Assembly: GCA_051251855.1 (NCBI GenBank)
Contig: JBPOGI010000001.1
Location: forward strand, 1,024,001-1,088,000
DNA: 64,000 nt
DNA from: Roseibacillus sp.
GTDB taxonomy: Bacteria > Verrucomicrobiota > Verrucomicrobiia > Verrucomicrobiales > Akkermansiaceae
Reading direction: 5' to 3'
Part shown: piece after piece, positions 27,562 to 50,693 of the stretch
How the letters are laid out: each line of letters begins with the position of its first letter
Numbering within the stretch: position 1 is the first letter of the stretch
The notes under the pieces: generated by a model
The model's input: only the letters and a program-made list of their open reading frames with translations
What the model was told of the DNA's origin: nothing
Databases searched by the model: none
Program-made: the position numbers and the translations under genes

Positions 27562-30500
27562 CTACCTCGAAGGGGTGAGTTGGTTGTGCCAGTGTTCGGC
27601 GATTTCGGTGAGGGCGCTTTTGGAACCTGATTTGGAGAAGGCGCTTTGTTGGAGGTCGGAGATTTCTTTGCTGAGGTCGGCGGCCTTTTCGGTGGGGACG
27701 GATGTCTTGAGCTGTTCGAGCCAGTGGAGGAGGCTGACTTCGGTGAGGTTGGAGGGGATGGCTGGACCGGAGACGATTTGTTCGGTGGGCGCGTTTGATT
27801 TCTTGAAGAAGCGCCAGGCGAAGAAGGCGATTGCCACGAGGATGAGGAGGAGAATCCAGGGCCAGATGCGAGGGCCGGTGGATTCGTTGAGTTGAACAGT
27901 CTCGCCAACAGGGAGAAGATCGACGTCTTGATAGCGCTGACGAAGGATGGCGTCTTCTTCGGCGAGAGAGTCGGTTGCGAGTTCGGTGAGGGCGGGGAAG
28001 GTGAACTCTGAGGGGGAGGAGCCTTTGGGCTTGAGGGTGACGCGGTATTCATGGGTGGACAGGGGGGCTCCGTCGTCGGTTTCGGTGGTGAGTTCTTCCA
28101 CTTGAAGTTCGCGGTCATCGATGCTGACGACTTCGAAGCCTTTGGGGGGCATGGTGACCAGTTTATCCAAGGAGGGAACGAGTCCATTAGCGGAGGTTTT
28201 GACTTCGAGTTGCCATTCTTCTTTTTCGGCGGCGGTGCGCTCGTCCAAGGTCATGGTGAGCTTGAGGTCGCGCACGGGGCGAGGGCCTGCTTCGGCTGCG
28301 ACGACGGAGACGTTTGCGGAGCTGATGGGGAGGACGACATGGCCGGAGGTGTCGAGGAAGTCGAGGTCGATTTTTAAGGGAGGGACGGTGTCGGTTTGGG
28401 GGCCTTTCGCTTTCAGGAGGAAGTAGGCGTAGGGGGTGGTTCGCCAGCCGATACGGGGGGAGGTGCGGGATTCGATTTTGTCGGTGTGGAAAGTGAGGGA
28501 GACCACTTCGAAGTTTTCTTCGAGGGCGGCGCGGGAGGCTTTCTCGAACTTGTCGCGGTAGTCTTCGGTGGGGCGGCCGAAATTATAGGAATAGGAGACG
28601 GTGTTTTGATTTTGGAGGTAGCGTTGGAAGCCGCCAGACTCGCGTTCGATTTCGCGGGTGTGATGAATGTTGATGAAAAGTCCGAAGGGCTCGGTGCCGA
28701 TTTGGGCGGAACCATCTAAAGTGGAGACGAGTTCGATTTCGGTGATCAGATCCTGATAGTAGTCGAAGACGGCTTGCGCGGATTCGATTTCTTCGCGATC
28801 GCCGACGATGCCGATAGCGGCTTCGAGATAGCGGTATTTGAGATCGGGAGAAACGTTGGCGAGTCGGGTGTTGAGGGTGCTAGCGAAGCTCTGGTAGTGA
28901 CGTTCGCGGGTCTTATCGTCGGGAAGAGCGTCGAGAGCAGCTTTGATTTTTGCGAACTCGGAGGAGACCGGCATGTGATGATTCTTGAGGGCTTCTAACA
29001 GAGGAGAGCCGAGGGCGGCATAAAACCAAGTCTCATAGACGGCAGAGGATTCGTCGCTTTCTGTCTCCAAGGGCAAGGATTGGGCGTAGAGCTGAGCGGC
29101 ATCTGCAAAGTCGTCGAGGGCGGTTCTCTTGGTGGTGGAGTGGGTAGATTGCGGCTGTAGGGCGGAGAGGTAGTTGGATTCCTCGTAAGTGAGGGCGGCC
29201 AGTTGGGTGAGGAGTTTGGAAGACTTGGGCTCGTTGCCCCAGGCGTTGGCGGTGACTTCGCGGGCCATTTCGTAGCCGGCGAGAACCTGTTGATGGAGTT
29301 CTTTGTCTTTTCGCTTGGTCTTGAATTGCTCCTGGAGTTTGGGATTGGGCCAGAGGGCGGCCAAGTTGATACGCATCTTTTCGATGAGAGAGGCAATGGT
29401 GTCGCCATCGACGGCTTTGATATCGCCGAAGACGGTTTGGAGGGCTTCGACGCGCCAGACTTCAGCTTGGGAGTGAACGGTGATGAAAGCACTGGCGAAT
29501 TCTTCGTTGAAGTTCTCTTCTAGTTTAAGCTCGCGCACGGAGGTCACCAGTTCAGAGAGTTCGACGAGGTTGCGCTCTTGCTTGGAGCGGGTGAGGGGGA
29601 TGGTTTCGGCGCGGTTGTTGTAGCCGTAAAAGTAGGAATAGGAGGAGCGGTAGCGGCTTTGCTGATTGGGGTTGTGGTTATCGGCCCAAACGTCGATGAG
29701 GTTTCTGACGAGTCCTTCGGCGGTATCGGGCTTGTGGGTGGAGAGCTGCTTGATGAAAGGGAAGGCTTTCTGGTGTTCTTTGACCTTGAGAAAGAGGCGG
29801 GGGATTTTTTCAATAAGCTGTAACTGAACGGTCTCGTCGACGGCGGCGATCCACTTGTCAGAGGGCGCGACTTCGATGATGTCGCCAGCGGGGATGGGGT
29901 TGGGTTGCTCGCGATTGTTGTTTTGAGAGTATTGCCGAGAGCCGTAGTATCTGTTGCCGTAGTTATCATACTGCATTTGGGGGCGCATGGAGTCGGAACG
30001 GTCGAGGCGTTGGGTGAGGTCGGCTTCTTTGAGCCAGTTGAGAGCGTAGATGGTGAAGATTTCTTTCCACTCGGGGAGGTCGATTCCGTCGGTGGCGAGG
30101 AGGGCTTCGGCGGCGCTTTTTTGGAGCTTGGCTTGTTGGAGGCGGAATTGGGAATTGCGAATTTGTCCTGCTTGAGAGGCGAGGGTGCCGACGGCAGCGA
30201 GGATGTCAAAGCCTTCGCCTGCGGGGTCGGAGAAGGTCTTGCGCAGCCAGTCTTGACCGGAGCCTTCTTCGAGTTCGGAGACGAGAGAGAGGGCGCGGTA
30301 AAGCGCTTCGCCGCGTTGGTCCATGGGGGCGTTCTCGGTGGACATGACCTGTAAGGAAAGTTCCCAAGCGAACGGGAGGTGCTCTTTACCTAGGTCCTTC
30401 TGGTGGGCTTCGGCGTGGTAGCGAGCGATAACGTTGAGTTCTTTGACTCGTTCGTATTTCTGCGCTTCTTGAACAGGGGGGAGGAAGTCTGCGGCTTGCT

Positions 30501-31281
30501 CGACTTGTCCCGCGTTGAGAAGAAGAGAAGAGGTGCGGAAGCGTTGCTCGGAATCGCTGGCACCGAAGTAGCGGGTGCCGGTCTTGAGTCGGTTGAAGAA
30601 GCTTTTGGGGGCGTCTTTGGAGAGAAGTTTAGCGAGGGACTCGATAGTGGAGACTTCAGGGTCGACTGGAGATGCGTCGGAGAGTGCGAGGACGTCGTCG
30701 GGGCTGAGGTAGTTGTTTTGGTTGTGGGGCTTGGCTCCCATGACCATGACTTCGGGCCTTGGCTTTACTTGAACGGGTTTGCCGAGCTCGGTGAGGAGGT
30801 GGGTGTAAGTCGTTTTGGCGAGGTCTTCGGGGAGGTCGGCGAGGTATTCGCGGACGGCGGTCCACTCGCCGAGGATGACGTTGCTTTGGAAGGTCTCGGC
30901 TGCTTTTTGATAGTCTTTGCGTAGCTCTTCTTTTTTAAGCGCTTCGGGATCGGGGGGAGGCTGTTTTTCGGCGTTGGGATTGGGTGCTGGTGGCACCTTT
31001 TCTTCTTTGGGGGGCTCGGGGTGGCGGCGTTCGCTTTCTTCCTTGAGGATCCCTGAGGGAGTGCGGTCGAACTTGAGCTTGGCTAAAAACTCCTTGCGAA
31101 AGGCTTCGGGGTCTTTCTGTTTGCTGCCTTGGTTTCCTTGGCTGCTACTTGGTTTCGCCCCTTGGGCCTGAGCCTGTTGGGGGTTGTCGAGATTCATGGG
31201 GATTTCGACGCGTTGACCATTGATGGTGATCTGCGAGAGGACGGGCGTGACGAGGAGAAGGAGAGGAAGGGTGAACTTCAT
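27562..31281 (-). CDS. Large (1239 aa) exported, C-terminally membrane-anchored hypothetical protein; last gene of the MoxR-VWA operon (BatD-like position)
   Basis: Signal peptide MKFTLPLLLLVTPVLSQ; helical-repeat-like middle; beta-rich C-terminal region; TM IWPWILLLILVAIAFFAWRFF near the end. Confidence 0.75.
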   Translation of the reverse strand: MKFTLPLLLLVTPVLSQITINGQRVEIPMNLDNPQQAQAQGAKPSSSQGNQGSKQKDPEAFRKEFLAKLKFDRTPSGILKEESERRHPEPPKEEKVPPAPNPNAEKQPPPDPEALKKEELRKDYQKAAETFQSNVILGEWTAVREYLADLPEDLAKTTYTHLLTELGKPVQVKPRPEVMVMGAKPHNQNNYLSPDDVLALSDASPVDPEVSTIESLAKLLSKDAPKSFFNRLKTGTRYFGASDSEQRFRTSSLLLNAGQVEQAADFLPPVQEAQKYERVKELNVIARYHAEAHQKDLGKEHLPFAWELSLQVMSTENAPMDQRGEALYRALSLVSELEEGSGQDWLRKTFSDPAGEGFDILAAVGTLASQAGQIRNSQFRLQQAKLQKSAAEALLATDGIDLPEWKEIFTIYALNWLKEADLTQRLDRSDSMRPQMQYDNYGNRYYGSRQYSQNNNREQPNPIPAGDIIEVAPSDKWIAAVDETVQLQLIEKIPRLFLKVKEHQKAFPFIKQLSTHKPDTAEGLVRNLIDVWADNHNPNQQSRYRSSYSYFYGYNNRAETIPLTRSKQERNLVELSELVTSVRELKLEENFNEEFASAFITVHSQAEVWRVEALQTVFGDIKAVDGDTIASLIEKMRINLAALWPNPKLQEQFKTKRKDKELHQQVLAGYEMAREVTANAWGNEPKSSKLLTQLAALTYEESNYLSALQPQSTHSTTKRTALDDFADAAQLYAQSLPLETESDESSAVYETWFYAALGSPLLEALKNHHMPVSSEFAKIKAALDALPDDKTRERHYQSFASTLNTRLANVSPDLKYRYLEAAIGIVGDREEIESAQAVFDYYQDLITEIELVSTLDGSAQIGTEPFGLFINIHHTREIERESGGFQRYLQNQNTVSYSYNFGRPTEDYRDKFEKASRAALEENFEVVSLTFHTDKIESRTSPRIGWRTTPYAYFLLKAKGPQTDTVPPLKIDLDFLDTSGHVVLPISSANVSVVAAEAGPRPVRDLKLTMTLDERTAAEKEEWQLEVKTSANGLVPSLDKLVTMPPKGFEVVSIDDRELQVEELTTETDDGAPLSTHEYRVTLKPKGSSPSEFTFPALTELATDSLAEEDAILRQRYQDVDLLPVGETVQLNESTGPRIWPWILLLILVAIAFFAWRFFKKSNAPTEQIVSGPAIPSNLTEVSLLHWLEQLKTSVPTEKAADLSKEISDLQQSAFSKSGSKSALTEIAEHWHNQLTPSR

Positions 31282-31322
31282 ACGTTGAGGTAGGAGAATG
31301 TTGTGTTGGAAAAGAGACGTTT

Positions 31323-32021
31323 TTAGCTGCCAGAGCCATCGGGTGGAGGACCGCTGCCTGCTCCGCGAGCGTCTTCGGTTCCTGGCTTTTTACCGGACTT
31401 TCCTGCTTTCGGGCGACCGCCCGAGGAGCAGCCTTGTCATTGGCTGGGGATGGGAAGGCCGTAGAGTTCGGCGGGGTCGATACGTGCGAGGCGGATGGTG
31501 GCTTCGAGGTCGTCGGCGGAGGTCTTGGCGAGTTCGGGATCGGCGGCGGTTTGGGCGAGGAGCTTGTATTCTTGGCGAGCGGCTTCGATTTCGGGCTCCC
31601 ACTCGGAATCGGGGAGGCCTTCGAGCTTCATGAGGTAAGTCATGTAGTACCGCGCATTGGCGAGGGCAGCCCGGGTTTCGTCACGAAGCTGCGGGTCGGC
31701 GTTGGGGTCTTGGTCGAGGACGAGCATGAGTTCAGCGAGTTCTTCGCGGGCTTCGGGGAGCTTCTTGTTGAGCATTTTCGCTTTCGCGATTTCGAGCTCT
31801 ATGCGACGGGCAGTGGTGACCTCTTCTTTGGGAAGTTTGCCCATGGCGGCTTCCCAGCACTTAATGGCTTGAGAGTAGTCCTCGTCGGCAAGAGCGGCTT
31901 CGGCTTTGTTGATGGACCCTTGAGCCTCGTCGAGGTCGAGATGGCTTTGTCCGGGGCCGAAATGCCATGCGGCAAATGCGAGCGGGATGAGGAGCCAGAG
32001 GGTTGTCAGTGCGATTTTCAT
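31323..32021 (-). CDS. Membrane-anchored TPR-like protein with an in-frame UGA (codon 195) forming a U-x-x-C motif; candidate selenoprotein (232 aa read-through, 194 aa if UGA stops)
   Basis: ATG 32021 overlaps the upstream stop (ATGA). The frame continues ...LPIPSQ-UGA-QGCSSGGRPKAGKSGKKPGTEDARGAGSGPPPDGSGS-TAA (31323). A SECIS-like hairpin follows the UGA. Confidence 0.75.
31403..31439 (-). promoter_or_regulatory. Candidate bacterial SECIS element (UGA plus stem-loop with GGUC apical loop)
   Basis: mRNA UGA CAAGG CUGCU CC UCGGGC GGUC GCCCGA A AGCAG: 5-bp lower stem, small internal loop, 6-bp upper stem, loop G22-G23-U24-C25 counting the U of UGA as 1. Confidence 0.7.
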
Positions 32022-33019
32022 GAGTGGTTGATGGTTGTGAGTAGTCTTGGTCGCTTCCACAAAGCGGAGCCAAGATTGTTCCTTTGTGTGATTAAATAGA
32101 GAATGAGCGGCAAAGAGGCCAGCAGGAAAGACGCACATGCAAGGATGATGAGGGCATACTCGCGAAGGGTTAGTTCGACCTTTTCGGCGGTGACTTGAAG
32201 GGTGCCAAGGCTGCGCAGGACGTTGGTGGGGACGTGCTTGAGGTTGCCGTCATGATACTCGCCACCGAGGCGGTTGGCGATTTCGCGCAGGGTGGAGACG
32301 TCTTGGCGTGATTGGCGGCCGTCGATGAAAGAGCCCTTCATGGGGTCGCCGACGCCGACGACGAGGGCGCCTCCGACGGAGGGTGGCATACGTGGCATTC
32401 CAGTGGGAGGGACGGTGTCGCCGTCGGAGATGAGAACGAGGGTGGTGGAGTTGGGGAGCCAGTCCTGTGCGATTTTGGCGGCTTCCTCGAGGCCGTCGAA
32501 GAGGCGGGTTTTTCCGGTTTCAAATGCGTAGTGCATGGGGAGGTCGCCGAGGATATTGAGAAGGACTTCGCGGTCGCGGGACTCTTTGACGACGGGTTTG
32601 GCTGAACTGTAAGTCGCGACTACGGTGAAGTGCATTTTCTCGTCTGAGACGCGTTGCAGGAGAGACTTCACCAAGGCAGAGGCGCGACGGGTGCGGGAGT
32701 CGGTTCCGACTTCGCCGGCGTCTTGCAGGCGCATGGAAGGGGAGACGTCGAGGACGAGAAGAAGGTGCTCGCGGTCGGCGGGTTCGATGGTTTCGAGCTT
32801 GGAGCGATGAGCCTTGGGTGAAAGGAGGAAGAGGGTGGAGAGAGCCCAGGCGATGATGGTGAGGCAGAGAGTCCTAACAAGAGGAACAATCCACAGGAGG
32901 AAGGAAGGGGTTTCTTGGAGCAGTGACTTTACCGCCGAAACGCGCTTCCAGTGCATGACTTCGGCCGCGGCGACAAGAATCGCAACGGCGAGTGAGATGA
33001 GAATGGAGGTGGTCATCAT
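32018..33019 (-). CDS. VWA domain membrane protein (BatB-like)
   Basis: MIDAS motif LDVSPSM and later ISDGD; N- and C-terminal TM segments; TAATG overlap with the upstream VWA gene. Confidence 0.85.
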   Translation of the reverse strand: MMTTSILISLAVAILVAAAEVMHWKRVSAVKSLLQETPSFLLWIVPLVRTLCLTIIAWALSTLFLLSPKAHRSKLETIEPADREHLLLVLDVSPSMRLQDAGEVGTDSRTRRASALVKSLLQRVSDEKMHFTVVATYSSAKPVVKESRDREVLLNILGDLPMHYAFETGKTRLFDGLEEAAKIAQDWLPNSTTLVLISDGDTVPPTGMPRMPPSVGGALVVGVGDPMKGSFIDGRQSRQDVSTLREIANRLGGEYHDGNLKHVPTNVLRSLGTLQVTAEKVELTLREYALIILACASFLLASLPLILYLITQRNNLGSALWKRPRLLTTINHS

Positions 33020-33933
33020 TACCAAGGGTTGTAGCGCAAGCCGAAGAGGGTGAGAAGGTGGAGACCGATGACGGAAAAGGCGGCGAGGACAAAGGGTCTA
33101 AAGTTGTCGACGGGGTCGGGGGTGAGGCGCTTGATGGGCGCTTGTTTCATGGCGTCGATTTGTTTGAAAACAGCCTCGAGTGCTGCGGGGTCACCGGCGG
33201 AAAAGTATTGTCCTCCTGTGATTGAGGAGATGACAGACACCTCTGGAGGGGGTGCGCCTTGGGCGACATGCACTCCGTAGAGAACGATGCCGTTTTCTTT
33301 GAGCGAGTTGGCGATTTCGACATCTTTGCCGTTGTAGAGGTCGAAGGATTGTCCGTCGGTGATGAGGAGAATCATCCGGTCGCCGTCCTCGCGTGAGATG
33401 AGAACTTTTTCGCAGGCTCTCACGGCCTTACCGATTTCGGTGCCACCAAACCAGCGTGGGAGGCTTTGGGGGCGAAGAAAAGGGGGGGCGCAGCGGAAGG
33501 CGGAGACGTCGGAGGTGAGCGGAATCCAGTGTAAATAGTTGTTGCCGAAGATGGTGAGGCCAAAGGCGTCTCCCTTGCGATAGTCAATGAAGCTATTGAC
33601 CGCTTCCATGGCAGCGTCATAGCGGTCCCCGTCGCCAAAGTTGGCGGTCATGGAGCCAGAGACATCGATGCAGAATTGAATGTTGGTCATTTCCTGCGCG
33701 GTGCGTGGTTGTTCGAATTTGCGAGGGCCCGCTAAGATGACGATGGCGAGAGCGAGGATGAGAGCGGGGAGTGAACCTGCGAGGTCGAGTACCCAGGTGA
33801 GGAGGCGTCGGCGTTGATGGGGGTGATTGTCGCTGGGAACGGGAACGGGCTGGGCCTTGAAGCGATGTTGGAAGACAAGCAGTCCGATGGGGACAACAAG
33901 GAGCAACAACACGAATGGATGGGCGAAGAGCAA
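33019..33933 (-). CDS. VWA domain membrane protein (BatA-like)
   Basis: F.HP..LLLL start, LAGP, IDVSGSM MIDAS, GDAFGL.IFG, PLT.D, GGTEIG, LITDG, TGG.YF.A. Confidence 0.88.
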   Translation of the reverse strand: MLFAHPFVLLLLVVPIGLLVFQHRFKAQPVPVPSDNHPHQRRRLLTWVLDLAGSLPALILALAIVILAGPRKFEQPRTAQEMTNIQFCIDVSGSMTANFGDGDRYDAAMEAVNSFIDYRKGDAFGLTIFGNNYLHWIPLTSDVSAFRCAPPFLRPQSLPRWFGGTEIGKAVRACEKVLISREDGDRMILLITDGQSFDLYNGKDVEIANSLKENGIVLYGVHVAQGAPPPEVSVISSITGGQYFSAGDPAALEAVFKQIDAMKQAPIKRLTPDPVDNFRPFVLAAFSVIGLHLLTLFGLRYNPW

Positions 33934-33939
33934 GGTTGG

Positions 33940-34782
33940 CTAGGTGCGGTAAGGTTCGAGGAGGGTGTCGATTTCGGAGGAGGAGACCTCGCTGGCAGGG
34001 GCGTGGAGCCAATGCTCGAGCTTGCGGAGGAGGGGGGAGGCTTCGGGGTGGTCGCGCAGAAGGGCGAGAGATTTGGCGGGGGGAAGGTCGGTGACTTCGG
34101 GAACACGCTTACGCCAGTGGGCGAGGATGAGGCGCTCGAGTTGCGCTTGTTCTTCGGTGGCGAGTTGGCCTTGGGATGCTTTTTTGAGAATGGGTTCGAG
34201 ACGATCGGCGAGGGTGGGAGGAGGCACTTCGGTTTGGTGGCTTTCCTTTCTTTTGCGGCTGGAAAAGAAGAGCCAAGTGAGCCCCGCTATCCAAACAAGG
34301 CCAAGGATGAAAAGAAGAGCGCGATAGCCTCCAATGCGAGGAGCGGGTTTGGGTTGGAGGGCGGCAGGTTGCGGTAAGCCCGGAGGGAGGCCGGTGGTGA
34401 TGATGAGTGGGATAAAGTGGGATGAGGTTCCGGATTCGGTGGCGGTGGGACGAAGGTAGTCGCCGAGATTGTAGGAACCGGGGTCGAGGCCTTGCACCTC
34501 GAAGGTGTAGCGGAAGCCGTCTTGGGCAGGTTTGGTTTCGACGAGGCGAACGATGAGCGGGACTTCGCGGTCTTTGCGGGGGACGGGTTCCGTGAGTGGG
34601 CCGGTGAGATAGAGGTCTTCGAGGAGGAGGGGGAGGCCGACGCGTTGGGTGGGTGTTTCGGCGTGGAGAGGTAGGGTGCAGAAGAGCGCGAAAAGGAGAA
34701 GGAAGATGATTTTCCCGAAATCCGCCTGAAGTGGGACGGTTCGTTGATGCGGCTTGCAAAGCCACGCTCCTGTTTCTTTCAT
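33940..34782 (-). CDS. Hypothetical membrane-anchored protein of the MoxR-VWA operon
   Basis: ATGA coupling to the DUF58 gene; hydrophobic signal-like segment, beta-rich domain, TM ALLFILGLVWIAGLTWLFF, helical tail. Confidence 0.7.
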   Translation of the reverse strand: MKETGAWLCKPHQRTVPLQADFGKIIFLLLFALFCTLPLHAETPTQRVGLPLLLEDLYLTGPLTEPVPRKDREVPLIVRLVETKPAQDGFRYTFEVQGLDPGSYNLGDYLRPTATESGTSSHFIPLIITTGLPPGLPQPAALQPKPAPRIGGYRALLFILGLVWIAGLTWLFFSSRKRKESHQTEVPPPTLADRLEPILKKASQGQLATEEQAQLERLILAHWRKRVPEVTDLPPAKSLALLRDHPEASPLLRKLEHWLHAPASEVSSSEIDTLLEPYRT

Positions 34783-35627
34783 CGGGAGAGGAGGTTGCGG
34801 GATTGTAGGAAGAGTCGGAGGGAGGCGAGAAAGGGTTGGTCGGTTTTGAGGAGGAAGTGGTCTACGGAGGCGCCTTGAAGCTCGCTCACGATGTCATCGG
34901 TGGTGGTGAATTGCTGGCGTGCAGGGGCGGTGATGGTGCGGTTGCTTTCGGCATCTTTGGCTCGGAGGAATCCGGCGCCAGCGAGTCCGTCTTCGGCAGG
35001 GTCGCGCAGCAGGATGGTGACCACGTCGTGACGACCGTTGACGAGCTTGAGAGCGGGAATGGCGGAAGGGTCGTGCAGGTCGGTGAGAACGAAGATGAGG
35101 GCGCGTTGTTTGAGAGAGGGATTGAGAGCGAGGAGTTTTTCGCCGAGCTGGGTTTTTTCCACGAAATCGAAGTGCCGGAGCTGGTGCAGCCAGAGCATGA
35201 GGGTTTCGCGGGAGAGGGAGGGGGAGACTTTGAGGTCGCGAGAGCCGGCTGCTAACAAGCCGACGGGAGAAACTCGGTCGAGGCAGGCAAGGGCGAGTCC
35301 GCCGGTGATTTGAACCGCGAGTTGATATTTTGAGAGCTTGGTGGAGCTCAAGGTCATGGAGGCGGAACTATCGACCACGAACCAGACGGGGAGCTGCTTG
35401 GGAGTTTCGTATTCTTTGATGTGGGGAACGCCGGTGCGTGCGGTGACTCGCCAATCGATGGTTTTGACGGGGTCACCGGGGACGTAGGGGCGCGATTGGA
35501 CATACTCTAAACCTGAACCAAGGAAGGGACTGCGGTCGGTGCCGTAGCTGAGGGAGTCAGCCAAGCGCTTGATCGCGATCACGAATTGTCGCGAGTCAAG
35601 AGGATCGGTTTGTTGGAGTTCGGGCAT
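34779..35627 (-). CDS. DUF58 domain protein
   Basis: S.F.GSGLEY...RPY.PGDPV..IDWRVTAR...KEYE and VVDSSASM motifs; follows the MoxR gene. Confidence 0.92.
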   Translation of the reverse strand: MPELQQTDPLDSRQFVIAIKRLADSLSYGTDRSPFLGSGLEYVQSRPYVPGDPVKTIDWRVTARTGVPHIKEYETPKQLPVWFVVDSSASMTLSSTKLSKYQLAVQITGGLALACLDRVSPVGLLAAGSRDLKVSPSLSRETLMLWLHQLRHFDFVEKTQLGEKLLALNPSLKQRALIFVLTDLHDPSAIPALKLVNGRHDVVTILLRDPAEDGLAGAGFLRAKDAESNRTITAPARQQFTTTDDIVSELQGASVDHFLLKTDQPFLASLRLFLQSRNLLSR

Positions 35628-35629
35628 GG

Positions 35630-36634
35630 CTAGCTGACCGAGGCTTCGAGGATCTCATTGAGGACGCCCTTGGGAGTCTTGCCTTCGGCGAGAGCTTCGT
35701 AGGAAAGGCGGATGCGGTGGAGGCAAACGTCTTCGGCGAGGGCAAAGAGGTCTTCGGGGATGACGTAGTCGCGACCGTGGATGAGGGCGCGAGCGCGGGA
35801 GGCCTTGAGGAGAGAGATTCCTGCACGAGGAGAACAGCCGAGTTCGAGGTCGGGGTGTTGGCGAGTGCGCTCGACGACGTCGATGACGTGTTTGAGAAAG
35901 ACGTCCGAGACGTGAATGTCGTGCACGGCTTGGGTAGCGTTGACGAGGTCTTCGGTAGTTCCGACTGCGTCGCCGCCGATGAGATCGAATTCCGTTTTGG
36001 CGACTGCTCCGCCGTCTTTCTTGCTGATGCCTAGCCTCATGTTGCGACGGAGAATTTCTTCCTCTTCCTCAGGGGTGGGGTAAGTGAGGCGGTGACAAAG
36101 CATGAAACGGTCGAGCTGGGCTTCGGGAAGCTCGAAGGTGCCGGATTGCTCGATGGGGTTCTGGGTCGCAATCACGAGGAAGGGGGTGGGAAGGGAGTAG
36201 GTCTCAGCTCCGAGGGTGACCTTACGCTCTTGCATGGCCTCTAGAAGAGCACCTTGAACCTTGGGCGCGGCGCGGTTGATCTCGTCGGCGAGAAGGAGGT
36301 TTGTGAAAATGGGGCCTTTGTGGGTGCGGAAGCTGCCCGACTTTTCATCGAGAATCTCGGTTCCAACGATATCGGAGGGCAAAAGGTCGATGGTGAACTG
36401 GATGCGGCGGAAATCGAGATGAAGCGCTTTGGAGACAGTGTTAACCAGAAGAGTCTTCGCCAGCCCGGGCATTCCTTCGAGGAGAAGGTGACCCGAGGTG
36501 AGAAGGGCGATGAGAGTGCGTTCGACGACCACGTCCTGTCCGACGACAATTTCGCCAGTTCGTTCTCGGATGGATTGGAGCCACGCGGACGTGGCCTCGG
36601 ATGAAGGGTGAGGTGCGCTCATAGAAAGGGTCAT
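35630..36634 (-). CDS. MoxR family AAA+ ATPase
   Basis: HLLLEGMPGLAKT, RIQFT.DLLPSDI.G, LLADEINRA.PKVQ.ALLEAMQE, ATQNPIEQ.GT.LPEAQLDRF, GCSPRA. Confidence 0.95.
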   Translation of the reverse strand: MTLSMSAPHPSSEATSAWLQSIRERTGEIVVGQDVVVERTLIALLTSGHLLLEGMPGLAKTLLVNTVSKALHLDFRRIQFTIDLLPSDIVGTEILDEKSGSFRTHKGPIFTNLLLADEINRAAPKVQGALLEAMQERKVTLGAETYSLPTPFLVIATQNPIEQSGTFELPEAQLDRFMLCHRLTYPTPEEEEEILRRNMRLGISKKDGGAVAKTEFDLIGGDAVGTTEDLVNATQAVHDIHVSDVFLKHVIDVVERTRQHPDLELGCSPRAGISLLKASRARALIHGRDYVIPEDLFALAEDVCLHRIRLSYEALAEGKTPKGVLNEILEASVS

Positions 36635-45525: not shown

Positions 45526-47643
45526 CTACTCAAGCGACTCGCCGGCTAACTTATCGCTCACCAATTTAATGAGATAGTTAGGAGTCAGTACTTCAGGCGT
45601 GATGTTCGGAACCTTCTTTTCCGGAGAGTAGAGCACATTTACAGGGATGGCTGAGCGACCAAGCTTGGTAAGTTCGGCATCGATTTCTTCGTTAGTCGTA
45701 GTTTTATCGGCCTTGAGGAAAAGAACGTTCCGGTTATTCATTAAGTCGACGACCTCCTGAGTATAAGCGTTCTTTTTGTTCACTTGGCAGGTGAGGCACC
45801 ATTTAGCAGTGAAGTCCACGTAGACAGGACGGCCCTCGGCAAGAGCTTCTTGCTCTTTCTCTTTTGTCCATTTCCCCCATTCGATAGTGACTACTTTCGA
45901 CTCGTCAATTGCTTGCCCTGGCTTGGCAAGAACAAAGCCAGCAAGGAAGAGCGCAAGCGTCACGCCGCGAGCAATCCACTTGGTTTTAGCTTTACGAATC
46001 GGGGTGGTCCAACGACCCCAAACCCATCCTGCTGCCGCAATCAAGGAGAGTCCAATCATCACGAAGAGTCCTTTTTGTCCGTAGTCTTGTTCGAAAACTT
46101 GCGCTGAATAAACCCAAAGCAGGTAACCAACGGTAGCAAACAGGAGGAAGGACATCCCTTGCTTGAAGGATTCCATCCAAGCTCCAGGGCGTGGGAGTTT
46201 TCTCACAAGGCCAGGGAAAGCTGAAAGGGTCAAGTAGGGAAGCGATAGTCCGGCAGCCATCACTGTGAAAGCCATAAAGAACCAGAAGGTTGGCAGGGCA
46301 ACCGCAGCACCGAGAGCGGCACCCAAGAAAGGAGCTGAACAAGGGGTCGCGACTACTGTTGCGAGAACGCCGGAGAAGAATGAACCTCCGAGGCCGTCTT
46401 TGCGGGTCAGATTGGAGCCGACTCCGGTTGCCCCAACTCCGATTTCGAAGACCCCATACATGTTCATGGCCAACAACAGCATCACGATGATGAGGGTGAA
46501 CATGACGTAGGGGTTCTCGAGTTGGCCGCCCCAGTTCTTGATACCTCCTAGAAGCATGATGAGAGTAAGCAGCCAAAAGCTTGCAAAGACGCCACCAGCA
46601 AAGGCGAAGCCATGCATCATGATCTTCTTACGGTCATGACCCGCTTGGTCAACGAAACCCATGATTTTGATTCCAATCACGGGGAAGACACAAGGCATGA
46701 GATTGAGAATCAGTCCGCCGACAAACATTCCAGTGAGGATGGGAAAGAGACTTGAGAAACTGACAGGAGTCTTTTTTTCCTCGGGAGTTCCAATCGAAGT
46801 TTCCACGAGATAGGATTGAGTGCCATCCGTTAGAATTCCTGTAAGTTGGTCTAACACAGGTCCCGGATCAGCGAACTCGTTCCCTTGGTTACGGGGGAGG
46901 TTGAGGGTGATAGTGTCGCCTTCCATGGTCGCGACGTGGGGGGCTTGCACGCTGACTTGGCCATCTTCGTCGAAAAATTTGAGACCGTCGGCATTGAGGT
47001 TTCCAGCAGGAGAAACGGTGACTGTGATGATGTTACTGACTTCGGTAGCCTTGATGTTGAAGTCCTTGGCTTCTGTGGGGTAGTGCGCGCGTGCTTTCTG
47101 GAATTCGGCAGTAAGAGAAGGGTCTGGAGATGATGTTGCGGTGATAGGTAATTTGAGAAATTGTTGTGTCTTCTCAGGGACGCAGCCTTTGTCGTCACAG
47201 ATTTGCCAACGAGAATTCAGGGTGATTTCGGCTGTTCCACCAGCGGTGAGATTTGCTGGGGGGGTGATTTTATAGAGATGGTGAACCGTCCCTTCGTAGC
47301 CGATTGTTTTGAAGCCAAAGGAGCTACTGAGGTGAGGGGTGGGCCATCCCAAGTATTCTGCAGTGAATCCTTCAGGGAGGGTCCACTCGGTGCTGAGGAC
47401 TTCACCAATGAGGCCCGTGTTGAGGTAGTAGCTATGCCAGCCTTCAGGATGGGTGAGCTTAAGAGCGACGGTGAAGGGTTGACCAGATGCGATAGAGGAG
47501 ACTTCAGAAAGGAGGCTAGCCTGGGTTTCCTCTTTCTTAGGTTTGCTCTTGGCACTGGGGAGACTGAAGGGATCGAAGTCATCAGCGGAGAGGAATCCAG
47601 TAAAAGGAATGAGGCTGAAAAGAAGAAGGAAGAGAATTTTCAT
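45526..47643 (-). CDS. Protein-disulfide reductase DsbD family (N-terminal Ig-like, TM, thioredoxin domains)
   Basis: WQICDDKGCVP, LNLMPCVFPV, ATPCSAPFLG, DFTAKWCLTCQVN. Confidence 0.9.
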   Translation of the reverse strand: MKILFLLLFSLIPFTGFLSADDFDPFSLPSAKSKPKKEETQASLLSEVSSIASGQPFTVALKLTHPEGWHSYYLNTGLIGEVLSTEWTLPEGFTAEYLGWPTPHLSSSFGFKTIGYEGTVHHLYKITPPANLTAGGTAEITLNSRWQICDDKGCVPEKTQQFLKLPITATSSPDPSLTAEFQKARAHYPTEAKDFNIKATEVSNIITVTVSPAGNLNADGLKFFDEDGQVSVQAPHVATMEGDTITLNLPRNQGNEFADPGPVLDQLTGILTDGTQSYLVETSIGTPEEKKTPVSFSSLFPILTGMFVGGLILNLMPCVFPVIGIKIMGFVDQAGHDRKKIMMHGFAFAGGVFASFWLLTLIMLLGGIKNWGGQLENPYVMFTLIIVMLLLAMNMYGVFEIGVGATGVGSNLTRKDGLGGSFFSGVLATVVATPCSAPFLGAALGAAVALPTFWFFMAFTVMAAGLSLPYLTLSAFPGLVRKLPRPGAWMESFKQGMSFLLFATVGYLLWVYSAQVFEQDYGQKGLFVMIGLSLIAAAGWVWGRWTTPIRKAKTKWIARGVTLALFLAGFVLAKPGQAIDESKVVTIEWGKWTKEKEQEALAEGRPVYVDFTAKWCLTCQVNKKNAYTQEVVDLMNNRNVLFLKADKTTTNEEIDAELTKLGRSAIPVNVLYSPEKKVPNITPEVLTPNYLIKLVSDKLAGESLE

Positions 47644-49301: not shown

Positions 49302-50693
49302 CTACTTGAAGAACTCGCGAAGAGCTTTCTTTTCGTCGGGATGCAGATCAGGAGCGACCTTCCAGATGAGTTCGCCGCCTTCGCCCAAATCTTCGACGGT
49401 TCCTCCGCCGCGCACGCCCACTTTACGCTCATCGACGCGGTGCTCGCCGTCTTGTAATTCGAGAAGGTCTCCGGGAAGAGTGTTTGAGAGGTCGCGCGAC
49501 TCGAGCCCCTCAAGGTCGCCCGCATCAAGTTCATCTCCCTTTTGCCCCAGCACGCCTGGTGCGGTTCCAGGCCCTCGACCGAGGCCTCCGTTGCCAGCAC
49601 CCTCTTGGCCTTCACCATCTTGTCCTTGACCCTGACCAGGGCCTTGTCCGTTGCCTTGTCATCCAGGGCCTCCTTCCTGCATGAGTTCGTCGAGCCACTC
49701 ATCGCCCTGTCCCTGACCTTCGCCGGGCTCTCCTTCGCCCCCTGCGTTTTGCATTTGCTGGGCTTGCTTACGCATGTTTTCGCGTAGCTGATCCATCTGC
49801 TCTTGAGAGAGATTTCCCAGCTTCTTGGGATCCATGCCACCGAGTTGTTTGAGCAACTCTTTATTCGGTTTCATTGCTCCGTTGTTCATCTTCTCAAGCG
49901 ACTGGTCAAACTCATCAAGAAGGCGTTCACGCGTTTCGGGGTTCATGCTTTCGCTATGATTTTGGAGAGCATTGAGGGCGCGCTCGGCTTTGCGTATGTC
50001 GCGTTCCAGTTCTTTGAGCTGCTGCTCGTGAGCCTCCTTAAGGCTATCGGTGGCTTCGAGCGAGGAATGGTCAAACCACTCTTCTTTCGGTTGCTCGCGG
50101 AGCTCTTCAACTTTCTCTTCAATTTCGTCGAGATAGTCCTCGTCAATGATGTCGTCCTTACGAAGCTCATCGATACTGGCCTGAAGTGCTTGCCGGTTGG
50201 CCGGCTCTTCGGGTGGGGCCGCGTTGGGATCGTTTTTAGCTGAAATCGGAAGAAAAAATGCAGCCGAAAGGAGCAGTAAGGTGGCGAGAGGAGGGATGAG
50301 AAGTCGAGGCCAATTCCAGCTCGTGCCATCGCTGGTCTCTTCGGCGACTTGGGGCCAAGGAGCGACCCCTTGTCTAGCTGCGGTGAGAGAGTTGTTTAAC
50401 GCCATAGCAGACTCGATGCGGACCAAGGCATTTTCCGTCGAAGTGAAATGTCGGCGAGCTACGAACCAGGCGATCAAGATCACAATGGCTAGGATACCAC
50501 AGGCCACTGCGAGGGAGGGCATCCAAGGAAAGGCGGCCCACTCTCGGCGAGCGAGCATGACGAGGCCTGCTCCCACGAGACCAGCGATGAGAAGGGGGAG
50601 AGAGAGCTTTTCCAAAAACCACGCCCAATTGAAACGCCGAGCCGTCGCCTTGGCGATTGCGAGCCAGCGTGATTGGACAGAACCTTCAGCCAT
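49302..50693 (-). CDS. Hypothetical membrane/coiled-coil protein with an in-frame UGA (codon 345) in a Gly/Gln-rich linker; 463 aa if read through (recoding candidate or nonsense mutation)
   Basis: ORFs 49659..50693 and 49302..49553 share a frame. Reading through gives ...QEGGPG-UGA-QGNGQGPGQGQGQDGEGQEGAGNGGLGRGPGTAPGVLG...LHPDEKKALREFFK-TAG with no other stop. Confidence 0.65.
49628..49661 (-). promoter_or_regulatory. Candidate SECIS-like hairpin with GGUC loop downstream of the in-frame UGA
   Basis: mRNA UGA CAAGGCAACGGACAA GGCCCU GGUC AGGGUC: 6-bp stem with one G-U pair, loop at nt 25-28; no lower stem seen. Confidence 0.5.

Follow-up and report, generated by a model that had tools for sequence, protein, structure and literature searches.

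A probable selenoprotein family with a TPR-like domain and a U-x-G-C tail, encoded in a MoxR-VWA operon of Roseibacillus sp.

The locus and its reading frame

The stretch of DNA considered here, referred to as the window, comprises 64,000 nucleotides (nt) of contig JBPOGI010000001.1 from Roseibacillus sp. (assembly GCA_051251855.1, positions 1,024,001 to 1,088,000). On its minus strand, in a series of genes for a MoxR-type ATPase and von Willebrand factor A (VWA) proteins, lies a gene whose 232-residue product is, judging from sequence comparison, very probably a real selenoprotein with selenocysteine (Sec, U) inserted at the UGA of codon 195 (Table 1). The open reading frame (ORF) starts with an ATG at 32021, reaches an in-frame TGA at 31439-31437 and continues for 37 codons to a TAA at 31325-31323, yielding a read-through product of 232 amino acids (aa) with the carboxy-terminus ..LPIPSQ-U-QGCSSGGRPKAGKSGKKPGTEDARGAGSGPPPDGSGS. 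An original prediction, made from the letters of the window, had proposed this continuation past the TGA, and its coordinates are exact.

The TGA itself is covered by contigs of two sequencing runs, at depths of 26 and about 3970, with zero alternative letters. Both runs belong to a study that may be the source of the assembly and are therefore not independent of it, and two further runs span only parts of the stretch. The aligned codon is also TGA in 29 other genomes. Taken with the two runs, this rules out an assembly slip or a read error at codon 195, and the TGA proposed in the original prediction is thereby confirmed.

Table 1. Features of the probable selenoprotein gene and of its operon in the window
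Feature	Position	Strand	Basis
MoxR-type AAA+ ATPase	35630..36634	-	Pfam AAA_3 (6.5e-63), AAA_lid_2
DUF58 protein	34779..35627	-	Pfam PF01882 (E = 4e-38)
280-aa membrane protein, two hydrophobic segments	33940..34782	-	no Pfam or NCBIfam match
VWA membrane protein (BatA position), three hydrophobic segments	33019..33933	-	Pfam VWA_2, VWA
VWA membrane protein (BatB position), three hydrophobic segments	32018..33025	-	Pfam VWA_2; TGA stop overlaps the ATG of the selenoprotein gene
Probable selenoprotein, full coding sequence, 232 codons, U195	31326..32021	-	translation, full-length homologs, Sec/Cys alignment
N-terminal membrane helix, residues 2-21, followed by near-invariant H-x-G-P-G-Q	31959..32018	-	model helix 2-21, hydrophobic segment 1-19, conserved columns
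TPR-like all-helical domain, residues 23-186	31464..31955	-	AlphaFold model, Foldseek, weak Pfam matches
Probable Sec codon UGA (codon 195), opening the U-Q-G-C motif	31437..31439	-	TGA in 29 other genomes, Cys in 27
Predicted SECIS hairpin: 5-bp lower stem, internal loop, upper stem UCGGGC/GCCCGA, apical loop GGUC (31418-31415)	31403..31431	-	folding and covariation
Tail: Q-G-C, basic Lys/Pro/Gly linker, conserved end D-A-R-G-A-G-x-G-P-P-x-D-G-S-G-S	31326..31436	-	codon entropy, alignment, model
1239-aa downstream protein (BatD position)	27562..31281	-	signal-peptide-like N-terminus, no Cys, C-terminal membrane helix (residues 1135-1153)

Relatives and the exchange of selenocysteine and cysteine

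A profile of seven relatives, searched with stops read through in 401 genomes of the same order, matched in 80 of these genomes and found a full-length copy in 58. Among the full-length relatives, 30 have TGA at exactly the aligned codon, and in 29 of these Sec forms it is the sole in-frame stop, one genome having two TGA codons. Of the 28 full-length relatives lacking the TGA, 27 carry Cys at the aligned codon and one is without Cys there. None of the homologs ends at PSQ with TAA or TAG, an outcome that would have spoken for an ordinary terminus. The 27 Cys forms consist of 23 members of a main clade, with motifs such as CQGCSSGRC and CNCKSGKC, and four members of a divergent EGQCM group.

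The genome with two TGA codons (L069, G344:C54) reads U-Q-G-T-U after ..LPLPSQ, with no Cys and a single GGUC hairpin, which lies 30 nt past the first UGA and 18 nt past the second, so that one Sec insertion sequence (SECIS) may serve both. In addition, short forms without a tail, stopping near profile position 160-183, account for 22 rows in 21 genomes, mostly of one family. L072 and L073, short forms with apparent internal stops, are not tail-bearing members, and two weak partial rows (E about 1e-5) match the middle of the domain only.

The exchange between Sec and Cys was placed on a tree of the N-terminal domain only, with the trait columns removed and with L058, the duplicate L008 and L072/L073 left out. 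This tree requires at least five switches between Sec and non-Sec forms, at least three of which are forced by strongly supported branches.

A wider profile search of 1.84 billion representatives returned 795 proteins at E <= 0.001, of which 211 reach E <= 1e-30. The best 150 of the 795 were sorted by a rough regular expression, by which 29 stop exactly at ..LP[LI]P-x-Q, that is, at the UGA site (one seems a misfit), and at least 49 continue into a Cys-rich motif. Many others of the best 150 have Cys-less acidic or Gly-rich tails that still end in G-x-G-S. In a phylum-wide sample, 7 of 401 genomes match at E <= 1e-10, a figure that says little on the range of the family because the sample is dominated by other lineages. 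Three members from other lineages of the phylum (L075, L076 and L077) have no Cys past the domain resembling tetratricopeptide repeats (TPR) and carry acidic tails of the GQGEGEGE type, again with a G-x-G-S end. Since the Cys-less distant members keep G-x-G-S, this carboxy-terminus appears to predate the Sec/Cys motif, and the Sec/Cys cluster is best seen as an addition in one part of an older family.

The tail downstream of the UGA

The frame stays open for 35-40 codons past the UGA and ends in G-x-G-S in all 29 scorable Sec forms, L058 having been left out of the scoring as it contains N. Over the last 16 codons of these 29 forms the entropy amounts to 0.52, 0.36 and 1.67 bits at codon positions 1, 2 and 3, respectively, and this concentration of entropy at third positions argues that the tail is protein-coding. 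Furthermore, G231 and S232 are invariant in the family alignment. The expectation that the downstream codons are conserved as protein, with a D-A-R-G-A-G..P-P..G-S tail, was thus borne out. The Cys forms show a third Cys in the pattern C-x-x-C-x-S-G-[KR]-C, which is absent in 29 of the 30 Sec forms. In 28 of the 30, U-x-G-C supplies only two chalcogen ligands, the exceptions being L043 (an extra Cys) and L069 (two Sec).

These data bear directly on the alternative that the UGA is a true stop, with the 194-aa product being whole and the downstream conservation reflecting a small ORF, a regulatory RNA or a decaying remnant. The 194-aa form is what all databases call, and the 37 closest database proteins are all 194 aa long and end at the UGA, a truncation by gene callers that the original prediction had foreseen. 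However, the tail frame has no start codon of its own, it bears the coding signature described above, and the Cys forms are continuous ORFs with the same tail; moreover, in 30 genomes the frame runs on without interruption to a common G-x-G-S end. The spacing of the operon speaks against a true stop as well. Measured from the longest-ORF starts, the first two genes lie 2 nt apart, the next two overlap by 4 nt, and a gap of 6 nt and overlaps of 7 nt and 4 nt (ATGA) follow in this order. The distance to the last gene is 155 nt from the UGA but shrinks to 41 nt with read-through, which restores the tight spacing. The original prediction had given the same 155 and 41 nt and had described all other junctions as overlaps or as shorter than 10 nt. 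A true stop is therefore hardly credible.

The SECIS-type hairpin

The hairpin CUGCU-CC-UCGGGC-GGUC-GCCCGA-A-AGCAG (31431-31403), drawn in the original prediction, folds exactly in this way as the minimum-energy structure, at -16.7 kcal/mol (z = -3.55, 0 of 200 shuffles as stable). Numbered from the U of the UGA, its apical loop consists of G22 G23 U24 C25 and caps an upper stem of 6 base pairs (bp), with a spacing of 18 nt. The two strands of the 4.96-Mb genome together contain 865 hairpins that have a GGUC loop on a stem of at least 5 bp, from which the chance of finding one 16-37 nt past a given TGA is about 0.002. An Rfam scan of 31300-31500 gave only two noise-level rows (E = 0.4 and 4).

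All 30 Sec forms share the GGUC loop and the C-G pair that closes it. Counted from the U of the UGA, the loop starts at +22 in 10 forms, +25 in three, +31 in 16 and +34 in one, corresponding to a spacing of 18-30 nt. The stems are clade-specific (CGGGC/GCCCG, GCCC/GGGC, CCGC/GCGG, CUGC/GCAG and CUCC/GGGG), with a contiguous length of 2-8 bp across the 30 forms and an internal mismatch in two; hairpin energies were computed for three Sec forms. Covariation was scored on a loop-anchored alignment of 26 distinct Sec-form rows, in which 76.4% of the stem cells pair, a share attained by none of 500 shuffles (51.1% when shuffled). Covariation scores 0.554, again higher than in any of 500 shuffles (0.158 when shuffled), with slid controls reaching at most 0.278. 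The pair adjoining the closing pair (11:18) is GC in 13 rows, CG in 11, AU in one and UG in one, and is unpaired in none. A GGUC hairpin in range is absent from all 27 Cys forms. Of the stems originally drawn, the upper stem-loop is thus kept with a covarying stem, whereas the lower stem CUGCU/AGCAG is not retained in other genomes.

The loop is always read in frame as GGU-CGN (Gly-Arg). All 30 Sec forms use GGU for this Gly, compared to 0 of 24 Cys forms at the matching G-[KRQ] position (GGC 18, GGG 4, GGA 2), the share of GGU in six neighbouring genes being 21 of 144 Gly codons. As the GGU-CGN codons spell the SECIS loop, a single stretch of sequence encodes both the peptide S-G-G-R-P and the RNA structure. 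At the place of [KR]-Cys in the Cys forms, the 3' arm of the stem (GCCCGA) imposes Arg-Pro, which is probably the reason why the Sec forms are without the third Cys. If so, the family would represent a clean case of an RNA structure shaping a peptide motif, by its loop as well as by its 3' arm.

The original prediction had likened this hairpin to the SECIS of Escherichia coli fdhF. The G23-U24 offset indeed agrees in this genome and its closest clade, but in other clades the loop starts at +25, +31 or +34. According to the available text of PMC8659212, the E. coli upper stem-loop comprises nt 15-31 and has a bulged U17, described as SelB contact, while G23 and U24 belong to its loop; that of this genome comprises nt 16-31, likewise with G23-U24 in the loop. 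Both are coding-region hairpins straight after the UGA with a G and a U in a small apical loop. In contrast to fdhF, there is no bulged U17 here and the loop offset ranges from +22 to +34 by clade. Furthermore, the protein is unrelated to formate dehydrogenase, and the Sec opens a disordered tail instead of lying in an enzyme active-site pocket. The spacing of 18-30 nt, the 4-nt loop and the G in the first loop positions agree with the consensus bacterial SECIS model as given in the available part of section 5 of PMC13188914.

The same loop recurs elsewhere in the genome. The UGA of SelD is followed by ACGCA-GGUCU-UGCGU, and a screen of the genome for the GGUC pattern also picks up FdhA (..CSRAUHAP..) and two thioredoxin-like U-x-x-C genes, which suggests that the GGUC-loop hairpin is the SECIS type of this organism. 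The three further screen matches are likely known selenoproteins: a thioredoxin-like ..VPG-U-GPC.. protein beside selA at G000:C1:1812084 (+), ..WGG-U-GGC.. at G000:C10:234380 (-) and FdhA, ..CSRA-U-HAP.., at G000:C1:1403243 (+).

Selenocysteine machinery and the reading of UGA

The source genome, 95% complete with 4.96 Mb in 13 contigs, has genes for SelA (376 bits), SelB (331 bits) and SelD (376 bits), all above the curated cut-offs, and for a tRNA-SeC with anticodon TCA, while SelD itself carries an in-frame TGA. The Sec machinery on which the original prediction depended is hence found in full (selA, selB, selD and tRNA-Sec). SelB and tRNA-Sec would read UGA-195 as Sec, recruited by the coding-region hairpin whose GGUC loop starts 18 nt past the UGA.

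A different possibility is that the UGA is read by a route other than Sec insertion, namely by a near-cognate tRNA (Trp, Cys or Arg) or through local reassignment, with the hairpin merely slowing termination. Reassignment of UGA to Trp has been reported in some Verrucomicrobiota, as stated in the available part of PMC13462651. However, UGA is also an ordinary stop, both in this genome and in genes of the family: the ATGA overlap contains the TGA stop of the upstream VWA gene, and eight Sec forms end their own frame with TGA. Moreover, the residue aligned with the UGA is Cys and not Trp, the GGUC loop is that of the genome's own SelD SECIS, and the TGA forms track SelA, which is present in 28 of the 30 Sec-form genomes compared to 6 of the 28 genomes with a TGA-less full-length copy (131 of the 401 order genomes overall). 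Decoding by such a route is thus very unlikely.

Several points weigh against the selenoprotein assignment. Sec insertion is argued here from comparative evidence. The independent events are few because the Sec-form genomes are related, amounting to a handful of stem types and at least three to five switches. SelA was not found in two of the Sec-form genomes, which are 80% and 67% complete. The U17 bulge missing from the hairpin is a SelB contact in E. coli according to the available text of PMC8659212, and the conservation of the hairpin is partly protein conservation, since it sits within conserved coding sequence.

Relation to known selenoproteins

The named database proteins among the closest ones (e.g. 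those from Roseibacillus and Akkermansiaceae) are labelled 'hypothetical protein', and the Cys forms, of 233-238 aa, are annotated as 'tetratricopeptide repeat protein'. Roseibacillus persicicus has a homolog with 81% identity, likewise called at 194 aa. The target protein matches no Pfam family at E <= 0.01 and no model of NCBIfam release 20, which includes selenoprotein models, the one hit being BamD at 21.9 bits against a cut-off of 81.4. Table 1 of PMC13188914 (May 2026), which lists 119 prokaryotic selenoprotein families, contains no entry for a TPR, Bat or MoxR-VWA protein. The terms TPR, Verrucomicrobi-, aerotolerance, VWA and MoxR are absent from the main texts of PMC13326102, PMC13188914, PMC12013277 and bioRxiv 10.1101/2022.07.06.499078, and the accessible part of PMC2398784, in which GOS_C occurs, does not mention TPR, Verrucomicrobi-, VWA or transmembrane. 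The peptide motifs of the family were not found in the accessible parts of the supplements of PMC2398784, PMC12013277 and PMC13326102. A literature search gave no paper joining selenoprotein with MoxR among the matches listed, and the literature on selenoprotein, Verrucomicrobia and SECIS, including the accessible part of PMC4807772, gave nothing relevant. As no family model, catalogue entry or paper matches, the protein appears to represent a new selenoprotein family with standard bacterial decoding, in agreement with the original prediction. Provided the Sec assignment is correct, this would add a well-supported bacterial selenoprotein family that is common in marine and soil Verrucomicrobiota and systematically truncated in databases.

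Among candidates for identity, 'hypothetical protein GOS_A' (2 sequences) was set aside through the peptide-motif search alone. GOS_C has a thioredoxin-like fold, as stated in the accessible part of PMC2398784, whereas the present protein is TPR-like and does not match NF045500. What it shares with GOS_C and other U-x-x-C selenoproteins without an assigned function is the U-x-x-C motif, the discovery through Sec/Cys homology and the common occurrence in marine bacteria. In the CcmH/CcmI-type cytochrome c maturation proteins, a membrane anchor and a periplasmic TPR domain occur together with a C-x-x-C thiol pair outside a thioredoxin fold. The present protein differs from these in having no corresponding Pfam or NCBIfam match, no cytochrome maturation context and a motif that is located on a disordered tail.

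Protein architecture

An AlphaFold model computed with 57 family sequences has a mean predicted local distance difference test score (pLDDT) of 88.2 and a predicted template modelling score of 0.77. It consists of the helix of residues 2-21 and seven more helices across residues 23-180, mostly with a pLDDT of 95-98. In blocks, the pLDDT is 81 at residues 21-30 and 92-98 at residues 31-190, and it falls to about 48-56 in the tail from about residue 196, which places Sec195 at the hinge between the TPR-like domain and the tail. This model agrees with the original prediction of a membrane-anchored, TPR-like protein with a flexible tail. A Foldseek search of the PDB returned generic TPR modules as its best rows (STI1, Hop TPR2A and BamD), all weaker than E = 0.001, and Pfam TPR_2 and TPR_19 match below threshold (E about 0.03). 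A thioredoxin-fold oxidoreductase was considered and rejected, as the model is all-helical and TPR-like and the U-x-x-C motif opens a low-confidence tail. Lys and Arg residues lie ahead of the N-terminal helix and an acidic segment behind it, so that by the positive-inside rule the domain and its tail would be located outside the cytoplasm.

The operon and its likeness to Bat clusters

The gene is preceded by those for the MoxR-type ATPase, the DUF58 protein, a membrane protein and two VWA proteins, which confirms the MoxR-VWA operon context of the original prediction by Pfam (AAA_3, DUF58 and VWA matches). In 30 related loci, a homolog of the large downstream protein comes next in 27 and VWA genes precede in 23-24, with the BatB-position VWA gene adjacent in 24; in one genus the target and the large protein form a pair separated from the VWA genes.

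The gene order matches that of the Bacteroides aerotolerance (Bat) cluster as described in the available parts of PMC5700661 and PMC3557215, both running MoxR, DUF58, membrane protein, VWA, VWA, TPR and large exported protein, with the present gene in the BatC position. The likeness to BatC, which is also TPR-like, is one of gene order and fold, and no Sec or C-x-x-C tail is reported for BatC in the literature searched. The two VWA proteins match the Leptospira BatA and BatB models below cut-off only (NCBIfam Leptospira BatA gives 70.5 bits for the 33019..33933 protein, the cut-off being 380). The 1239-aa protein matches no Pfam family, BatD (PF13584) included, even at E <= 5; a language-model comparison gives a weak lead to BatD (0.79), and the layout of signal peptide and C-terminal helix agrees with it.

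In the same available parts, Bat proteins are proposed to reduce periplasmic proteins or to export reducing power, and a bat mutant of B. fragilis was partly rescued by reducing agents (PMC3557215). In a Borrelia homolog, the VWA domain is oriented towards the periplasm (PMC5700661). The function of Bat-type envelope clusters is still termed elusive (PMC3557215).

Elsewhere in the window, 14 kb from the selenoprotein gene, a DsbD-type thiol:disulfide electron transporter (DsbD_N, DsbD_TM, thioredoxin-like) is encoded at 45526-47643 (-). It is a possible source of periplasmic reducing power, unlinked to the operon.

Possible functions of the U-x-G-C arm

The single N-terminal helix would anchor the protein as a TPR-like subunit of a Bat-like complex, with the domain and tail facing the periplasm beside the exported, Cys-free partner. 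On this flexible arm, U-x-G-C may cycle between the selenol/thiol and selenenylsulfide states and thereby supply the complex with a reductant, or with a redox sensor, for envelope targets. Such a redox function, which fits the proposal on reducing power for Bat proteins in the available text of PMC3557215, is put forward tentatively, with slightly less than even confidence.

A number of observations count against the redox function. Leptospira bat mutants are without an oxidative-stress phenotype, according to the available text of PMC3557215. The topology was judged from charges and hydrophobicity, and a tail as strongly basic as this one would be unusual in the periplasm. The spacing of the Cys residues varies (C-x-C, C-x-x-C, up to six Cys) and would suit a metal site equally. 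Since distant members are Cys-less, the site would be an add-on to the core role of the family. Finally, the likeness to B. fragilis BatC is one of gene position.

The variable Cys spacing leads to an alternative in which the protein is the same selenoprotein and its Sec/Cys cluster is a metal ligand (e.g. for Cu, Zn, Fe or Hg), the flexible arm taking up or handing over an ion for the MoxR-VWA proteins. The Cys forms, having 2-6 variably spaced Cys in a Lys-rich stretch, resemble a metal-binding cluster. MoxR/VWA pairs such as NorQD insert a metal cofactor (available parts of PMC9976466 and PMC13036017), and several catalogued U-x-x-C selenoproteins handle metals (PMC13188914 Table 1). On the other hand, the two ligands present in 28 of 30 Sec forms are too few for a stand-alone metal site, conserved histidine or acidic ligands are absent nearby, and no metalloenzyme client was identified in the cluster by Pfam and NCBIfam. 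A metal-binding role, the main alternative to the redox function, is considered less likely than the latter.

Extending the redox function, the Sec/Cys arm could be the missing reactive centre of Bat-type MoxR-VWA complexes, a periplasm-facing selenol on a flexible tether that reduces envelope targets or senses their oxidation, and the same genome may also use Sec in the linker of a second membrane protein. This broader picture is speculative and, taken as a whole, doubtful. If it were true, the widespread 'aerotolerance' Bat-type clusters would gain a chemistry. Provided the Sec assignment is correct, the Sec/Cys site would offer a testable chemical handle on Bat/MoxR-VWA clusters.

Other in-frame TGA codons in the genome

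A second in-frame TGA of the window (49661-49659, codon 345) lies in the gene at 49302-50693 (-), which encodes a 463-aa membrane/coiled-coil protein without a Pfam family. In most of 49 genomes, relatives match over the full length (1-463) without a stop. TGA occurs at the same column in six genomes of the genus (two TGA codons in one), and the column in other relatives holds Gly or a gap and in a single case Cys. All six TGA genomes have a (G)CCCU-GGUC-AGGG hairpin that begins 21 nt past the UGA. The candidate Sec is situated in a Gly/Gln-rich linker and has no Cys partner, which is odd for a selenoprotein; if true, this protein would exemplify the use of Sec outside any classical redox motif.

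In addition, the paralogous large ORFs G000:C6:420847 and G000:C6:424896 (+) each contain an in-frame TGA (..TGDL-U-SVYWRQ..), with 619-635 open codons ahead of the TGA and 653 after it, and a GGUCN-loop hairpin follows 17 nt on.

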